Shown here piece after piece: positions 9,658 to 18,746 of a DNA stretch of 64,000 nucleotides. The translations under genes and the position numbers were made by a program. Origin of the DNA: a phage; the sequence record PZ357121.2. One strand, 5' to 3'. Below the pieces are notes generated by a model. The model saw nothing but the letters and a program-made list of their open reading frames with translations. It was not told the origin of the DNA and searched no databases. Each line of letters starts with the position of its first letter. Position 1 is the first letter of the stretch.

Positions 9658-10791
<1,134 letters not shown>

Positions 10792-10836
10792 TCAGTTAGT
10801 TTTTTAAATTGTACCACAATCCTTGTGGCATGTAAA

Positions 10837-11247
10837 CTACTTTTTCTTATGTTGGATATTCCAAGGCGGGTTGAACTTTTTGATAAAAAGCGGTTCTTCA
10901 AGGTCCATTGTTGCGATGGTCATTGAACCAAGTTCGTTGGTGACTGAAAGGTCAAAACATTGGCGGGCCCAGAATTCAACCTTTTTGCCTTGCATTAAGG
11001 CATCCAAAATCATAAGTGATTTTCTTGAATCTGAAGTCTGGTCTTTTCGATTTATGGCTGTTCGATAATAGTTAATGCGTTTCTTTAAATTCTTGGTTTT
11101 ACCAATATACACAAGTTCGTCATCTATAGCAATAGCGTATATGACATTTTTCTTATTAGGGACATCAACTGTTTTAATTGTTGCATCTTCTAATAGCTCC
11201 AATTCTGTATATTTAATAAAGGAATATTCGGCGGCAATATCTTTCAT
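10837..11247 (-). CDS. denA: endonuclease II (GIY-YIG family)
   Basis: 136 aa with GIY-YIG-like core (YAIAIDDELVYIGKTKNLKKRI); T4 denA size and position next to nrdB. Confidence 0.8.
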   Translation of the reverse strand: MKDIAAEYSFIKYTELELLEDATIKTVDVPNKKNVIYAIAIDDELVYIGKTKNLKKRINYYRTAINRKDQTSDSRKSLMILDALMQGKKVEFWARQCFDLSVTNELGSMTIATMDLEEPLFIKKFNPPWNIQHKKK

Positions 11248-11255
11248 AATAAAGT

Positions 11256-11269
11256 GGGACCGAAGTCCC
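11256..11269 (-). other. intergenic stem-loop between nrdB and denA
   Basis: gggaccgaagtccc palindrome with a CGAA/UUCG loop, 13 nt from the denA ATG region. Confidence 0.4.
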
Positions 11270-11273
11270 GTCC

Positions 11274-12413
11274 TTAGAAATATTTTTTGTATGAATTGAT
11301 TACATTTTGGTCTACATCATTATCAATTTGTGCGACAAGATAAGAACTGATTTCAACTTCCTGAGGAGCTGCTTGAACTAAATCAGAGTTCAGATATTCA
11401 CGAATCCAAGGATACGGATGCTTGGTCGGAGCATCAGTGATTGGGCATGGCAAACCACACTGTTTCATACGAGACACAGTCAAGTAATCAACAAAAGCAC
11501 ACATACTCTGCGTATTGATACCTGGGCATGTACCGTCTTTAAAGAGGTGTGCAGCCCATTCCTTCTCTTGTCTATTTACTTCCATAAAAATGTCAACTGC
11601 TTCTTGTTCACATTCTTTAGCAATTTGAACCCACTCATCACCATCAGTACCAGATTGAAGTTGACGGATAATGTACTGAGTACCCTTGAGGTGGAGTTGT
11701 TCGTCACGAGCAATGAACTTCATAATCTTTGCATTACCTTCCATAATTTCCATATTTTTATGGAAGTTGAAAGTACATGCAAATGATACGTAAAAACGAA
11801 TAGCTTCCAGAGCGTTGATTACATGCAGACAGAGGTAAAGAGAACGCATTAGTTCGTATTTAGCCTGTTTTACGCCTTCGCTAAACTCGTGATATTCTTC
11901 TAAAGCATTCTGGTAAAGGCGAGTCTTGACTAGAACATCATCGTAATATTTACCTATTGATTCAGCTCGTTTCATGATTGCTTCGTCTAATACAATTTCA
12001 TCAAATACCTTAGATGGATCCGTATAAAGATTTCGCATAATATGAGTATACGAACGAGAGTGAATAGTTTCACTGAATGTCCATGTTGCAACCCACGTAT
12101 CTAATGAAGGGTCGGAAATCAGTGCCATAAGTACCGCAGATGGGGCCCTGCCTTGGATAGAATCTAATAATGATTGATACTTAAGATTGTTTGTAAAGAT
12201 GTCCTGTTGGAACTGAGGAAGCTTATTGAACTGCGCAGAGTCCAACATCAAGTTTACCTCTTCGGGACGCCAGAAAAATGACAAGGATTTTTCTATAAGT
12301 TCTTCAAAAACTTTATGACGCTGAATATCATACCGTGCGAGGCCAAGACCAGAACCAAAGAACATTGGTTCATTCAAAACATCGACTTGTTGTGTGTTAA
12401 AAACTGTACTCAT
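11274..12413 (-). CDS. nrdB: ribonucleotide reductase small subunit
   Basis: 379 aa, uninterrupted; strong similarity to T4/E. coli NrdB. Confidence 0.95.
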   Translation of the reverse strand: MSTVFNTQQVDVLNEPMFFGSGLGLARYDIQRHKVFEELIEKSLSFFWRPEEVNLMLDSAQFNKLPQFQQDIFTNNLKYQSLLDSIQGRAPSAVLMALISDPSLDTWVATWTFSETIHSRSYTHIMRNLYTDPSKVFDEIVLDEAIMKRAESIGKYYDDVLVKTRLYQNALEEYHEFSEGVKQAKYELMRSLYLCLHVINALEAIRFYVSFACTFNFHKNMEIMEGNAKIMKFIARDEQLHLKGTQYIIRQLQSGTDGDEWVQIAKECEQEAVDIFMEVNRQEKEWAAHLFKDGTCPGINTQSMCAFVDYLTVSRMKQCGLPCPITDAPTKHPYPWIREYLNSDLVQAAPQEVEISSYLVAQIDNDVDQNVINSYKKYF

Positions 12414-12466
12414 TATATTTTCTCACTTAGTTTAACTCATCCATGAGTAAATTATAATCAAAAGTC

Positions 12467-13456
12467 TTAAAGCTTACAAGCAGAACAATCTTCAGCTTTA
12501 GGTGTTTCTAATTCATAGTCATCTGTACCTGACCCATCACGAGTGTTATGATAGTAGAGGTTTTTTCCGCCAAAGTACCAGAAGTAAAGTAGATCGTCAA
12601 GCATTACTGACATTGGTACTTTACCTTTCTCAAATACTGCAGGGTCATAGTAAGTATTAGCAGAAGCAGATTGGCACACCCATTTCAACATGATAGCAAC
12701 TTGGGTCAAATAAGGTTTATTACCTTTCTTAGCAAGTTTCCACGCATAGTCGTAAAGACTCATATTATGTTCGATATTAGGAACAACCTGTCGGAAGTTG
12801 CCTTCTTTAGATTCTTTAATACTTACTGGACCACGCGGGGGCTCAATCCCGTTTGTAGAGTTTGATACTTGGCTGCTTGACTCACAAGGCATGAGTGCAG
12901 ACAACGTTGAGTTACGAATTCCGTGTTCTTTGAGTTCAGCTCGAAGTTCTTCCCAGTCACAGACGTAGTTCGGGGCTGCGATTTGGTCAATCTTTTTATT
13001 GTACCAGTCGATAGGTAATTCGCCTCTAGACCATTTAGTGTCTGAATAATACTCGCAACATCCTTTTTCTTTGGCGAGTTTGATTGAAGCTTTGATAAGG
13101 CCATATTGCAATCTCTCAAACAATTCATGAGTCAAATCGTTAGCGTCTTCATACGAAGCAAAGTTAGAAGCTAACCATGCAGCATAGTTCGTAACACCAA
13201 TACCGAGGTTTCGACGCTTTTTAGCTTTTAAAGCTTCTGGAACCGGATAATCTTGATAGTCTAACAGGTTATCAAGTGCACGTACTTGTACTTCAGCAAG
13301 TTCATTAATTTTATCTTGGTCTTGCCAATCAAATTTATCAAGAACAAAGGCAGAAAGAGTGCAGAGGCCCACTTCACCTTTGTTTTCAATAACTTGTATT
13401 GTTGTATACTCATCATCTTCGTAAAATTCATCTACAAATTCATAATCAATATTCAT
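12467..13456 (-). CDS. nrdA: ribonucleotide reductase large subunit, C-terminal piece
   Basis: 329 aa aligning to the C-terminal third of NrdA (GLCTLSAF..., SALMPCESSSQVSNSTNGIEPPRG, C-terminal CSACKL); has its own ATG. Confidence 0.85.
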   Translation of the reverse strand: MNIDYEFVDEFYEDDEYTTIQVIENKGEVGLCTLSAFVLDKFDWQDQDKINELAEVQVRALDNLLDYQDYPVPEALKAKKRRNLGIGVTNYAAWLASNFASYEDANDLTHELFERLQYGLIKASIKLAKEKGCCEYYSDTKWSRGELPIDWYNKKIDQIAAPNYVCDWEELRAELKEHGIRNSTLSALMPCESSSQVSNSTNGIEPPRGPVSIKESKEGNFRQVVPNIEHNMSLYDYAWKLAKKGNKPYLTQVAIMLKWVCQSASANTYYDPAVFEKGKVPMSVMLDDLLYFWYFGGKNLYYHNTRDGSGTDDYELETPKAEDCSACKL

Positions 13457-14156
13457 TTAATTCTTCTACCTTTTTTCGAGATATTCCTAGAGCTTTAGAT
13501 GCTCGATGTATTGATTGATATTCTATACCGTTTATTTTTACAGCAATTAAGTTATGGGGTTTTAATCCCTTTGGATGAGGTTTACTGACGTATTCTTGAT
13601 TATCGTTTTCAGAGATATTATCAAGCTTTCGACACTTAAAGCCTTTATGTTGAGACCTTTTGCCTTTGCATACGGCCGACATTGCCGAAGCATTGAGTGA
13701 ATGTAGTTCGCAAAATTCTCTTAGGCCTTTATGGATTTCTTCATGACCGTCTGGGAAAGTAAATACCCAAGTTGTTTGAAGTTTTTCTCTATGCTCGTCA
13801 GTTACCGGAATACCTTTGTTCCAAGCTGGTTTGCCTTTATTATTTTCAGATACAGAAATAGCCAATTTTCTTCTAAGCCACCCATGGCGTTTATTGGTGT
13901 TCTTTCGTTCAATATTATCTTCAGAATAAACACACATCATATTAGCGGCAAATACCAATTTATAATTATCTGGATATATCTTTACTAATAATTGATGAGC
14001 TATGTAATGCTCTTCGGGTGTCAAATCTACCAGGTTTTCCTTTGTATCAGAACCACCAATACACAGAGGTATAATATGGTGTGATTCGGTATAGCAATCT
14101 AATTTTCTGTTCTTAGCTTTAGAAATAAGGTTATTGTAAATTTTAGAATAATCCAT
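13446..14156 (-). mobile_element. HNH homing endonuclease (MobE-like) inserted within nrdA
   Basis: 236 aa with HNH core (ESHHIIPLCIGGSDTKENLV...EEHYIAHQ) plus repeated NUMOD-like DNA-binding modules; ATG at 14156. Confidence 0.8.
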
Positions 14157-14201
14157 AACTTTTCCTCTTGTTATGGATTATTTATTAACGGTCTGTGTAC
14201 T

Positions 14202-15635
14202 TTATTTGCTTTGAATTATACCGCCAGGATTAGCTTCATAAAACTTAGCTACATCCGACTTCTTAATTTTGATTAAACGGGTTTGTTGGCTATTCACATC
14301 ATTAGTTGGAATAGCGATTTCACAACATAAGTTACTCTGACGAATTGGAGCTTTTTCACGAATAAATGGAGTGTAGTTATTCGTGTTATCAACGAATTGT
14401 GGATAAATTCGAGCAGTGCCAGAACGTTCAGTCATGAACAATTCAAAGAGTTCTAGTGCTTTGATTCTTTTCTTTCTGATTGTCGGGTCTTTTTCAGCTT
14501 TCTCATAAAGCTCACGGAATTTATCTTGATCTTCAAAGAACGAGTAGTATAGTTCGCCTGACATTTCGTGAGGGCTAAATAAAGTAATATAATCATTTTT
14601 ACCAAGGCGTTCCATCATAAGGTCATTAATCTGAATTCCGTAGTCCATATGTCGAATACGGTTTTCATCCACGCCTTTGTTATTTTTCAGAACTAATAGG
14701 TTCTCTACTTCTAAGTGCCACATCGGATAATACGCTGTAGCAGCACCACCACGAATACCACCTTGAGAACAAGATTTTACTGCAGTTTGGAAATGTTTCC
14801 AGAATGGAATAACACCTGTATGTCGAACTTCACCCATACCGATCTTAGAACCTTCTGCACGAAGCATACCAACGTTGATACCGATACCAGCTCGTTTAGA
14901 AATATATTCAATAATTGATGCTGAAGTTTTGTTAATAGATTTTAACGAATCACCGGCTTCAATAACTACACAACTAGAGAACTGGCGAGTTGGAGTACGA
15001 GCACCTGCCATAATTGGAGTAGGCAATGAAACTTGATGAGTAGAAACGGCATCATAAAAACGAATAATATGTTTCAAACGGTCATGAGTTTCGTTTTGGT
15101 GTAAGGCCATGCCAATAGCCATGATAGCAAACTGGGGAGTTTCATAAATCTTCCCAGTTGTTTTATCTTTAACTAGATATTTTTCTTTAAGCTGCATAGC
15201 ACCAGCATAAGTCAGGTCAAAGTCTCGTTCATGTTTAATCTGTGAATCGAGATAAATGATTTCTTCTGCTGAATATTGAGACAACAGCTCAGGGTCATAT
15301 TTGCCTTCATTAACACAATAAGAAATATGGTCGATAAAAGCAGGCGGTTCAAACTGCCCATATACATCTTTACGAAGTGCAAACATTAGCCCTTTGGCGG
15401 CGACATACTGATAATCAGGTTCTTCGACAGAAATCGAGTTAGCTGCAACTTTAATACAAATCTTCTGGATATCTTTGGTGCTCATCCCGTCGACAAGATG
15501 GGTCTTAATTTCTTCGTACAATTCATATGGGTCAATTTGTGTTCCTTCACACTGCCAAGTTAAGACTTGAATAATTTTCTGTGCATCAAAATTTTGGGAT
15601 ACACCTGAATTTTTCACTACTTTAAAATTATACAT
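14202..15635 (-). CDS. nrdA: ribonucleotide reductase large subunit, N-terminal piece
   Basis: 477 aa aligning to the NrdA N-terminus through the active-site block SNLCCEIAIPT, then ending in its own stop. Confidence 0.85.
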   Translation of the reverse strand: MYNFKVVKNSGVSQNFDAQKIIQVLTWQCEGTQIDPYELYEEIKTHLVDGMSTKDIQKICIKVAANSISVEEPDYQYVAAKGLMFALRKDVYGQFEPPAFIDHISYCVNEGKYDPELLSQYSAEEIIYLDSQIKHERDFDLTYAGAMQLKEKYLVKDKTTGKIYETPQFAIMAIGMALHQNETHDRLKHIIRFYDAVSTHQVSLPTPIMAGARTPTRQFSSCVVIEAGDSLKSINKTSASIIEYISKRAGIGINVGMLRAEGSKIGMGEVRHTGVIPFWKHFQTAVKSCSQGGIRGGAATAYYPMWHLEVENLLVLKNNKGVDENRIRHMDYGIQINDLMMERLGKNDYITLFSPHEMSGELYYSFFEDQDKFRELYEKAEKDPTIRKKRIKALELFELFMTERSGTARIYPQFVDNTNNYTPFIREKAPIRQSNLCCEIAIPTNDVNSQQTRLIKIKKSDVAKFYEANPGGIIQSK

Positions 15636-16275
15636 AATAATTCCATGTTGGATAATTTGATGATTTTAGACGGCGTCTAACCGTTTGGGTGCTCATAGAT
15701 AAAGCTATTGACGCTTCATTTAATGTATCATATATTACGTCGTTTATAATTACTTTCTTTGCAAATGGATTCTTAGCTCCTATCATAGCATTAGAAATAG
15801 CTTGCTTAGTTGATTCTTTTAATGGGACTCCTTTAGAAATTTTTGATTTAATTTTTATATTGTATTGTCCACGTTTTTTACCTAATAAAGAATTTCGTAT
15901 CTTTTCTTTAGTCTCTTCAGATTTAACATGTCCTAGTTTGGAACGAGATATTTTATCTTTTGTTTTTTGGTCTAATTTTCGCCCTTTAAGCAAATCAACC
16001 ATTTTTGCTCTAGCCCATCCAAATTCTTTATTATTTCTAGAACTCATTAAATTAACCGCGGTTGCTAAACCTAAATTGTTCGGATATATTTTTAATAAAA
16101 GAAGATGAGCCAAATAATGTTCTGAATATGTTAATTTAACTAGATTGTATGACTCATTGGTGCCACCTAAACATTTTGGGATTATATGATGCCATTCACC
16201 ATCTATATCTTCAAAATTTCTTTCTTTATTTACCAAGTTTTTATATATTTTTAAATAATCCATAATATAATCCAC
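15628..16275 (-). mobile_element. HNH homing endonuclease, free-standing, upstream of nrdA
   Basis: 215 aa with HNH core (WHHIIPKCLGGTNESYNLV...SEHYLAHL) and K-rich NUMOD-like repeats; track start is GTG, probable ATG at 16263. Confidence 0.75.
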
Positions 16276-16338
16276 TTTGTAGTATCAACGGGATAGTATT
16301 TATCCCGTTAATTTATTATACACTTTTAAACTGAAGCG

Positions 16339-16593
16339 TTAATTATTCTTAGCAATAATTTCTTTGTATTCTTTAGGAGTCAAAACTGTGATATCGAAAT
16401 AAACCAATGGTTCTTTTTCCATACCGTAACCACCACAAAATTCACGATATTCATAAATTCGTTCATGTGAATAACAAATGAATCGTTCACCTTTAACTGT
16501 GATTTCACTATTTGGTGAAGGGATATCTAGTTCGGTAGGATTTTTCATTTCAAAAATTGTGGTGCCATATGAATTAATAAAACGTAAAATCAT
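16339..16593 (-). CDS. hypothetical protein
   Basis: 84-aa ORF abutting td. Confidence 0.5.
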   Translation of the reverse strand: MILRFINSYGTTIFEMKNPTELDIPSPNSEITVKGERFICYSHERIYEYREFCGGYGMEKEPLVYFDITVLTPKEYKEIIAKNN

Positions 16594-18289
<1,696 letters not shown>

Positions 18290-18353
18290 TTTATTCTCCG
18301 CTTCACTTTTGATTTGATAGGGCTACTATAACATAGCCCTATCTTGTTATAAA

Positions 18354-18746
18354 CTACTTTTTAAAAGTTTTTTGCAAAAGTTTGATGATTTCGTCGACGT
18401 TGGTTTCATCTACGATACAATGGATTTTTGTTACACCTAAAGTTATACCTTCGTTAGTAGGTTGAGGCTTTACTAAATCTACCTCAGTAAAGTATTTGAA
18501 CTCGTCAGGATAAATCTCAAAATAAGTTTCAATTTCACCGCCGGCAGAGCATACAGTACCGTCTTCCATAGTTACACTTACTACATTTGGCGTATCGTCA
18601 TCATAATCAGGTTCCATTCCGTTTACAACAAAACTAGGCCCGTGGAGTTCAATCAATTTTAACATCTTAGCGTTATTGTGCGGCGCTTCTTGAACAAAGT
18701 CGTCTTTAAATAAAGGGTTAATGATATAAGATTTTCCGATTTCCAT
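18354..18746 (-). CDS. hypothetical protein
   Basis: 130-aa ORF with an early promoter upstream. Confidence 0.5.
   Translation of the reverse strand: MEIGKSYIINPLFKDDFVQEAPHNNAKMLKLIELHGPSFVVNGMEPDYDDDTPNVVSVTMEDGTVCSAGGEIETYFEIYPDEFKYFTEVDLVKPQPTNEGITLGVTKIHCIVDETNVDEIIKLLQKTFKK

Follow-up and report, generated by a model that had tools for sequence, protein, structure and literature searches.

We find that nrdA, which encodes the large subunit of the class Ia ribonucleotide reductase (RNR), is split in two in a 64,000-nucleotide (nt) stretch of phage DNA (sequence record PZ357121.2; "the window" denotes this whole stretch) by a 916-nt cassette in which a gene for an HNH homing endonuclease of the MobE type has a short coding tail on either side. 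Both the phenomenon and the mechanism behind it have already been published for the Aeromonas phage Aeh1, and the window, which in this region matches T4-like coliphages, is a further example of them. We consider it very likely that the window carries an Aeh1-type cassette and that the split gene yields two NrdA polypeptides that assemble non-covalently.

The two nrdA pieces and the endonuclease gene between them lie on the minus strand (Table 1). An earlier annotation made from the letters of the DNA and its open reading frames (ORFs), here called the sequence-only reading, had proposed that an HNH gene divides nrdA into two ORFs. The ORF list for positions 11000-17500 reproduces all of its numbers, including coordinates, lengths and the 45 nt from the nrdA-N stop to the endonuclease ATG, and puts the overlap between the endonuclease and nrdA-C ORFs at 11 nt; comparisons with Pfam and with Escherichia coli R1 agree with the split itself. 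The N piece matches the ATP-cone, the RNR all-alpha domain and barrel positions 1-221 of 523 (E 2.7e-64), and the C piece matches barrel positions 219-523 of 523 (E 2e-64); as these positions complement each other, the two ORFs are complementary halves of a single NrdA, well above chance. In alignments with E. coli R1, residues 4-455 correspond to the N piece (E 2.6e-161) and residues 453-751 to the C piece (E 1.8e-93). The active-site cysteines are thereby partitioned, with C225 and C439 on the N piece and C462 on the C piece. The nrdA-N and endonuclease ORFs share one frame with two stops between them, and nrdA-C is in a different frame.

Table 1. Features of the split nrdA region and its surroundings in the window.
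Feature	Position	Strand	Description
nrdA-N (NrdA-a equivalent)	14202..15635	minus	477 amino acids (aa), ending in SNLCCEIAIPTNDVNSQQTRLIKIKKSDVAKFYEANPGGIIQSK before the stop; ATP-cone, all-alpha domain and first barrel half; C225, N437, C439 and E441 equivalents (FSSCVVIE, SNLCCEIA)
Whole cassette	13377..14292	minus	916 nt: N-tail coding sequence, stop, 45-nt spacer, HNH gene, C-tail coding sequence
C-terminal tail of the N piece	14205..14292	minus	SQQTRLIKIKKSDVAKFYEANPGGIIQSK; cassette-derived, basic, core L[IV]K[IV][KR]K.D[IV]..F
Late-promoter-like motif	14179..14186	minus	AATAAATA; differs at one position from the consensus of T4 late promoters, TATAAATA; shares the first 4 nt of the hairpin 5' arm
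RNA hairpin (predicted)	14147..14182	minus	perfect 13-base-pair stem (AAUAAUCCAUAAC / GUUAUGGAUUAUU); Shine-Dalgarno (SD) element GAGG in the loop, endonuclease AUG in the 3' arm
HNH endonuclease gene	13446..14156	minus	236 aa, free-standing, MobE-type; N-terminal HNH motif (HHIIPLCIGGSDTKENLVDLTPEEHYIAH), I-HmuI NUMOD-like and I-TevI-like DNA-binding regions
N-terminal tail of the C piece	13377..13456	minus	MNIDYEFVDEFYEDDEYTTIQVIENKG; cassette-derived, acidic, invariant core YED[DE]EYTT
nrdA-C (NrdA-b equivalent)	12467..13456	minus	329 aa, beginning MNIDYEFVDEFYEDDEYTTIQVIENKGEVGLCTLSAF; second barrel half; C462 equivalent (GLCTLSAF), YY dyad (NLYYHNTRDG), C-terminal CSAC redox pair
Recoded tract	13340..13372	minus	directly 3' of the insert; codons for E[I/V]GLCTLSAFVL (C462 strand)
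GTGTACAYA motif	14192..14200	minus	AGTACACAG; directly 3' of the nrdA-N stop
Second Mob-like HNH ORF	15628..16275	minus	215 aa; directly upstream of nrdA-N, with an 8-nt overlap with its start
td	16594..17454		286 aa; uninterrupted
nrdB	11274..12413		uninterrupted
GIY-YIG protein	10837..11247	minus	136 aa; just downstream of nrdB

The insertion site was mapped by aligning the junction with the intact allele of phage a20, which is 98-99% identical to the window and has a single 754-codon nrdA. The cassette stands in place of 12 nt of the a20 allele, coding for GPDA within ...NDVN-GPDA-EIGLC..., and because 916 nt replace only these 12 nt, both tails are part of the inserted DNA and do not belong to nrdA. 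The insertion falls within the part of nrdA that codes for a loop, with the strand bearing C439 and E441 on one side and the strand bearing C462 on the other. Phage ZQ3 (classified as Mosigvirus JS09), 98.7% identical to the window, has the same nrdA split with a cassette that is 100% identical. Immediately 3' of the insert the window differs from a20 by 12 substitutions within 37 nt, 11 of the 12 being synonymous, and the 60 nt on the 5' side contain none; such a cluster (12 mismatches in 60 nt against a background of 2%) has a binomial probability of about 2e-9, the remaining differences between the two phages (about 2%) being scattered. This recoded tract is a candidate for either a co-conversion tract or a cleavage-resistant version of the homing site, the choice between the two being one of inference.

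The nearest full-length relative of the endonuclease outside the coliphage copies is Aeh1 MobE (47.6% identity over 96% of the query, E 6e-50, tblastn). In Aeh1 (nrdA-a/mobE/nrdA-b) as in the window, the same gene is interrupted at the same point, between the C439/E441 and C462 strands, and in an identical codon register, with 14-15 residues from PT to the KK of the N-tail and 13 residues from YTT to the Cys. The two arrangements also correspond in their dimensions, Aeh1 and the window having N pieces of 473 and 477 aa, C pieces of 323 and 329 aa, spacers of 46 and 45 nt, endonucleases of 237 and 236 aa, and overlaps of 14 and 11 nt, respectively. The HNH endonucleases are homologous over their full length (48% identity), the tails are homologous, basic on NrdA-a and acidic on NrdA-b, and both endonuclease translation starts lie under a predicted hairpin accompanied by a late-promoter-like motif. 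The phages themselves differ, Aeh1 belonging to Cinqassovirus and the window-type hosts being enterobacterial phages of Mosigvirus or Tequatrovirus type, and outside their cores the tails have diverged to 27-38% identity. The gene-in-pieces arrangement that the sequence-only reading had proposed, on the model of the mobE-split nrdA of an Aeromonas T4-like phage, is thus supported, and the extra unmatched tails that it had noticed on both pieces are absent from a20 and homologous to those of Aeh1. Judged from the sequences, the resemblance is one of homology of the whole cassette, not analogy.

Between these two ends lies a series of intermediates. A large protein database contains divergent full-length homologues of the endonuclease at 51-67% identity, and all eight of those that we looked up, which are metagenomic, lie in split nrdA genes with tails, in td-nrdA-nrdB synteny throughout. 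Where complete, their N pieces have 474-485 aa (one is cut by a contig end and one has 614 aa with a mini-intein) and their C pieces 324-329 aa (one is cut by a contig end). A separate origin of the coliphage split, by transposition of another Mob-type endonuclease with convergence on the Aeh1 design, would accord with the intact nrdA of the close Aeh1 relatives PX29, phiAS5 and Ah1 and with a 2022 preprint (bioRxiv 10.1101/2022.08.31.505936), which already mentions such copies, as unpublished, under the wording "independent but similar MobE insertions". That origin is nevertheless quite unlikely in view of the identical codon register on both sides of the insert, the homologous tails with their invariant cores (YED[DE]EYTT and L.K..K...F), the homology of the endonucleases along their entire length, the shared spacer length and overlap design, and the graded intermediates. 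Most simply, the cassette arose once and has since homed repeatedly into this one site, in which case "independent" describes acquisitions and not inventions. A search of the literature found no paper analysing the coliphage copies.

The tails themselves have the marks of maintained coding sequence. The N-tail is missing from the intact NrdA of a20 and homologous to the tail of Aeh1 NrdA-a, and both tails align with their Aeh1 counterparts gap-free and in the same register (RLIKIKKSDVAKF in the window and MLFKVKKSEVDKF in Aeh1 for the N-tails, EFYEDDEYTTIQV and EVYEDEEYTTVEI for the C-tails). The window N-tail (33 aa including NDVN) has a charge of +3 and an isoelectric point (pI) of 9.7, and the C-tail (30 aa up to the LCTL motif) a charge of -9 and a pI of about 4; across 11 lineages the N-tails range from +3 to +7 (pI 9.5-10.3) and the C-tails from -7 to -14 (pI about 4). 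Mean pairwise identity is 42% for the N-tails and 55% for the C-tails; the endonuclease reaches 55.5% and the neighbouring NrdA cores 60% and 65%. The tail cores are invariant or nearly so across the eight divergent lineages and Aeh1. The proportion of non-synonymous differences (pN) is far below that of synonymous differences (pS) in both the tails and the endonuclease, with a ratio of about 0.05-0.35 where synonymous sites are unsaturated. This deficit of non-synonymous change implies that tails and endonuclease alike are maintained as coding sequence.

What the tails do has been described for Aeh1. Crona et al. (2011, Nucleic Acids Research [NAR], PMC3045599) report that they are essential for activity and promote a large subunit of composition (NrdA-a/NrdA-b)2, and that the polypeptides are translated independently and stay separate, without RNA or protein splicing, in a fully active enzyme, an (aa/ab)2b2 holoenzyme. 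We lean, with slightly better than even confidence, towards seeing the tails and the endonuclease gene as one discrete, laterally mobile "gene-splitting cassette" that would come equipped with adaptors for reassembling the protein. Aeh1 was the one case from which this idea had been put forward, and for "several other Myoviridae" it was mentioned as unpublished.

Two kinds of spliced element could in principle leave an interrupted gene of this shape, and the sequence-only reading had set both aside. A group I intron containing the endonuclease ORF and spliced from the mRNA would have precedent in T-even phages, where such introns with a homing endonuclease gene (HEG) occur in td, nrdB and nrdD (PMC2988022), and some database records call related endonucleases "group I intron endonuclease". 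We give this explanation almost no credence: an Rfam search at E<=1 on both strands of 10500-18500 gave no match to an intron or to any other family; non-coding sequence amounts to 45 nt upstream of the HEG and none downstream, in which the sequence-only reading had seen no room for an intron core; and what flanks the HEG is translated and conserved, with signs of purifying selection. Aeh1 transcripts are themselves reportedly not spliced, a result attributed to Friedrich et al. (PNAS, 2007).

A contiguous intein is excluded by the two in-frame stops and the frame change. The pieces might still be joined by protein trans-splicing, the tails then being split-intein halves or a degenerate remnant, and several circumstances invite that thought. 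RNR genes often host inteins, and fractured split-intein genes with a free-standing endonuclease are known (Dassa et al. 2009, PMC2677866), in which, as in the window, an nrdA-type gene lies in two ORFs around an endonuclease gene and oppositely charged terminal segments were proposed to drive association. Crona et al. (PMC3045599) considered that the tails might stem from a degenerate intein, and the L087 lineage has a real mini-intein some 15 codons upstream whose ends superficially resemble the tails. The genes of Dassa et al., however, have recognisable split Hint domains and are expected to be trans-spliced, whereas the window has neither Hint similarity nor junction nucleophiles nor sufficient length. 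The tails comprise only about 28 aa each, much shorter than any Hint domain half; across the lineages the N junction is without a conserved Cys or Ser and the C junction without HN followed by Cys, Ser or Thr; and Pfam at E<=10, run on the window tails and all 10 aligned tail pairs, gave scattered noise only and no intein or Hint family. A profile of the tails recovered only the native R1 loop DVNDENGEIALCTLSAF among the sequences of the Protein Data Bank. The likeness to the termini of the L087 mini-intein (SLVDIKINDKF compared with TLIKIKKSDVAKF, and YDITVED compared with YTTIQVIE) did not rise above shuffled sequences (p 0.08-0.99) and was dropped. With the Aeh1 polypeptides also remaining separate (PMC3045599), trans-splicing is very improbable, and non-covalent assembly of two independently made polypeptides is the reading we retain.

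The mini-intein of L087 (607-2451; also in L099) merits description in its own right. It has 141 aa (CLSGD...NDILVHN/C) and interrupts the nrdA N piece at the C439 codon, with the MobE-type cassette following about 15 codons further downstream; two different mobile elements therefore share the active-site loop region. In the IMG/VR contigs L027-L032 (about 298-1660) the NLCC and LCTL motifs of nrdA are separated by about 1.2 kilobases, a distance suggestive of an intein at the C439 codon; these contigs have a Mob-like HNH gene downstream of nrdA, in the canonical mobE position.

The hairpin over the endonuclease start (Table 1) folds with a z score of -2.6, and 1 of 200 shuffles folds equally well. 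It is predicted in all 11 lineages, where compensatory changes follow the second codon of the endonuclease (AAUAAUCCAU/AUGGAUUAUU as against AAUAGUUCAU/AUGAACUAUU). A motif resembling TATAAATA occurs in or just before the 5' arm in 11 lineages and is perfect in L087, L088 and L092. The window hairpin buries the AUG and leaves the SD element in the loop, whereas that of Aeh1 buries the SD element. For I-TevI and Aeh1 mobE, the start is sequestered on read-through transcripts and exposed on late transcripts that begin inside the hairpin (PMC2988022); the combination of hairpin and late-promoter-like motif agrees with the regulation described for Aeh1 mobE, by analogy with which the promoter would be used. 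For nrdA-C, an SD-like AAGGT/GAAG precedes the ATG within the endonuclease ORF of the window, and an SD-like GAGG/AGGT lies 8-17 nt upstream of the nrdA-C start, likewise inside the endonuclease ORF, in every lineage, a placement that is consistent with independent initiation. A scan for sigma-70 promoters and terminators gave nothing informative above shuffles. The GTGTACAYA motif directly 3' of the nrdA-N stop is present in most cassette lineages, including the equivalent place in L086-L093.

The endonuclease belongs to PHROG 655, "homing endonuclease" (E 4e-60). Its Pfam match to HNH (17.9 bits) is below the cut-off of 21.4, that to the I-HmuI NUMOD-like region is above its cut-off, and its HNH motif, HHIIPL..GG.DT..N.V.L.P..H...H, aligns with the McrA HNH domain (E 0.0035); the HNH residues are invariant across the aligned full-length homologues. 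Within T4 the best match is mobD, at 41% identity over the N-terminal 60% only.

The cassette is patchily distributed. In a curated phage collection about 830 records match the nrdA region and about 35 carry the cassette; at 90% identity or more the 916 nt are found in 35 records (14 at >=99%, 2 at 95-99% and 19 at 90-95%) of phages of Escherichia, Shigella, Yersinia and Salmonella, and GenBank records already annotate two nrdA coding sequences flanking a homing endonuclease. The site is polymorphic among close relatives, the a20 flanks being 99% identical and without cassette. In REP2 (annotated as Tequatrovirus) the cassette is 99-100% identical to that of the window and the nrdA flanks only 65-85%, with the 3' boundary of identity at most about 14 nt from the insert. 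Cassette identity that exceeds flank identity, together with presence or absence among phages that are 98-99% identical, indicates recent lateral spread, presumably by homing. A PTE-Eco15-type allele (L005, 2501-3211) is 91% identical overall and mosaic, with tails and a 5' (HNH) half of the endonuclease gene that are near-identical and a C-terminal DNA-binding part at 71-82%, which suggests recombination between cassette variants or diversified target recognition.

Beyond the coliphages the tailed split was rare in the collections scanned. An IMG/VR scan with the endonuclease alignment returned 80 loci, among which only Aeh1 has the tailed split; most of the matches were N-terminal HNH-domain relatives downstream of an intact nrdA. 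The motif YED[DE]EYTT, sought in IMG/VR and in metagenomes of the Joint Genome Institute (JGI), was found in Aeh1 and one contig (L099), the other 17 matches being unrelated proteins, and the C-tail motif followed by LCTL occurred in IMG/VR in Aeh1 only and in the JGI metagenome collection in one contig. With the N-terminus of Aeh1 NrdA-b as a tblastn query, full coverage was obtained in Aeh1 only, the low-complexity filter having probably masked the acidic tails of the coliphages. The coliphage cassette is polymorphic and evidently spreading now (35 records, with 99-100% identity between differently classified phages), whereas Aeh1 is the sole carrier in its clade, its close relatives PX29, phiAS5 and Ah1 having intact nrdA genes.

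Taken together, these observations suggest the following course. A mobile 916-nt cassette, comprising a MobE-type HNH gene bracketed by two coding tails and orthologous to the Aeh1 mobE insertion, would have homed into the loop-coding region of nrdA and turned it into two independently translated genes, so that NrdA-a ends in a basic tail and NrdA-b, initiated from an SD-like element and ATG of its own within the 3' end of the HNH gene, starts with an acidic one. As in Aeh1, the two polypeptides would associate non-covalently, with neither RNA nor protein splicing, and the tails would promote an (NrdA-a/NrdA-b)2 large subunit that pairs with NrdB2 to give an active class Ia reductase. On read-through nrdA transcripts the endonuclease start codon would be buried in the hairpin, and it is probably exposed only on transcripts from AATAAATA in the hairpin 5' arm, which would limit the endonuclease to late infection. 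The cassette may then spread by cutting the intact nrdA of co-infecting phages and being copied in by recombination together with the short recoded C462 stretch.

Several points weigh against this interpretation. That the split enzyme is active and unspliced and that it depends on its tails is carried over from the biochemistry of Aeh1, and on either side of the split the Aeh1 NrdA is only about 54-72% identical. The sequences show the anatomy, the homology to Aeh1, the insertion site, conservation and selection on the tails, lateral transfer and a predicted hairpin; that the enzyme works, what its tails do, whether the promoter is used and where the endonuclease cuts are inferred. The late-promoter motif of the window is one mismatch off the consensus, and synonymous sites are saturated in most lineage pairs, which makes the dN/dS values (rates of non-synonymous over synonymous change) rough. 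T4 nrdA is, moreover, dispensable in laboratory hosts, and viable phages are therefore no proof of a working split enzyme.

That dispensability also underlies the main residual rival, in which the insertion inactivated nrdA, the phage uses the host reductase, the ORFs are decaying remnants and the tails are incidental read-through peptides; the cassettes of the window and its close relatives are moreover so recent (99-100% identity) that decay might not yet show. Yet both ORFs are intact with all catalytic residues present, as they are in about 35 phage records and in the eight lineages whose HEGs are at 51-67% identity, the tail cores are invariant with pN far below pS, an SD-like element is kept before every nrdA-C start, and the homologous Aeh1 enzyme is fully active (PMC3045599). 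On this evidence inactivation is unlikely, and a functional split enzyme of the Aeh1 type remains the reading we prefer.

Two arrangements in T4 bear comparison with that of the window. T4 mobE (PMC2790892; PMC2988022) is likewise a free-standing Mob-family HNH endonuclease gene at the aerobic RNR operon with no intron or intein, but it lies between nrdA and nrdB, whereas the window has no HEG between nrdA-C and nrdB. In T4 genes 39/60 (Crona et al.; bioRxiv 10.1101/2022.08.31.505936) a Mob-type HNH cassette, mobA, likewise interrupts the gene of an essential enzyme at a functional site, and its two products, extended at the C- and N-terminus, reassemble unspliced; the target there is a topoisomerase, the tails are unrelated, and a 50-nt translational bypass cassette has no counterpart in the window.

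Other mobile elements surround the split gene. The second Mob-like HNH ORF, directly upstream of nrdA-N, also belongs to PHROG 655 and is 47% identical to the internal endonuclease across its N-terminal 99 aa; its C-terminal part differs, consisting of NUMOD3 and an I-TevI DNA-binding domain. It is found in a20 and missing from ZQ3, and the window pairs two endonuclease genes that no single record of the phage collection has together (best coverage 83%). In a20, td and nrdB are annotated in fragments with endonuclease genes between them, and both genes are uninterrupted in the window; the mobile-element content around the nucleotide-metabolism genes is a mosaic among phages that are 98-99% identical. 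Just downstream of nrdB, the GIY-YIG protein matches phrog_1111, "endonuclease", over its whole length (E 1e-63); its position and size make it look more like T4 denA (endonuclease II) than like a homing endonuclease.

The coliphage loci extend the Aeh1 story without changing it, adding the homology of the whole cassette, selection on the tails, the comparison of cassette with flank identity, the recoded 3' tract and the hairpin and late-promoter design. For annotation, two "nrdA" ORFs and a "homing endonuclease" are to be read as one functional unit and not as a pseudogene, an intron or an assembly error. The split reductase of Aeh1 has been treated as near-unique; at least 11 diverged T4-like lineages have this cassette with its tails, inserted at one and the same codon, and it is currently moving between coliphages annotated as Mosigvirus and Tequatrovirus. 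This recurrence supports the tails as an integral "antidote" part of the mobile element and not an accident of one insertion, and the 11 lineages, the selection on the tails and the excess of cassette over flank identity would be the first systematic support for the idea of a cassette with its own adaptors. If that idea is true, it would represent a third route, besides introns and inteins, by which a homing endonuclease can occupy the most conserved part of an important gene without destroying it; the strict conservation of the tail cores among endonucleases that have diverged to about 45-50% identity would reflect a specific folded interaction module of basic and acidic partners, and this module might be portable to other split proteins. 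Tractable E. coli phages with natural cassette-free partners such as a20 offer systems in which homing, tail function and the regulation of the endonuclease may be studied.

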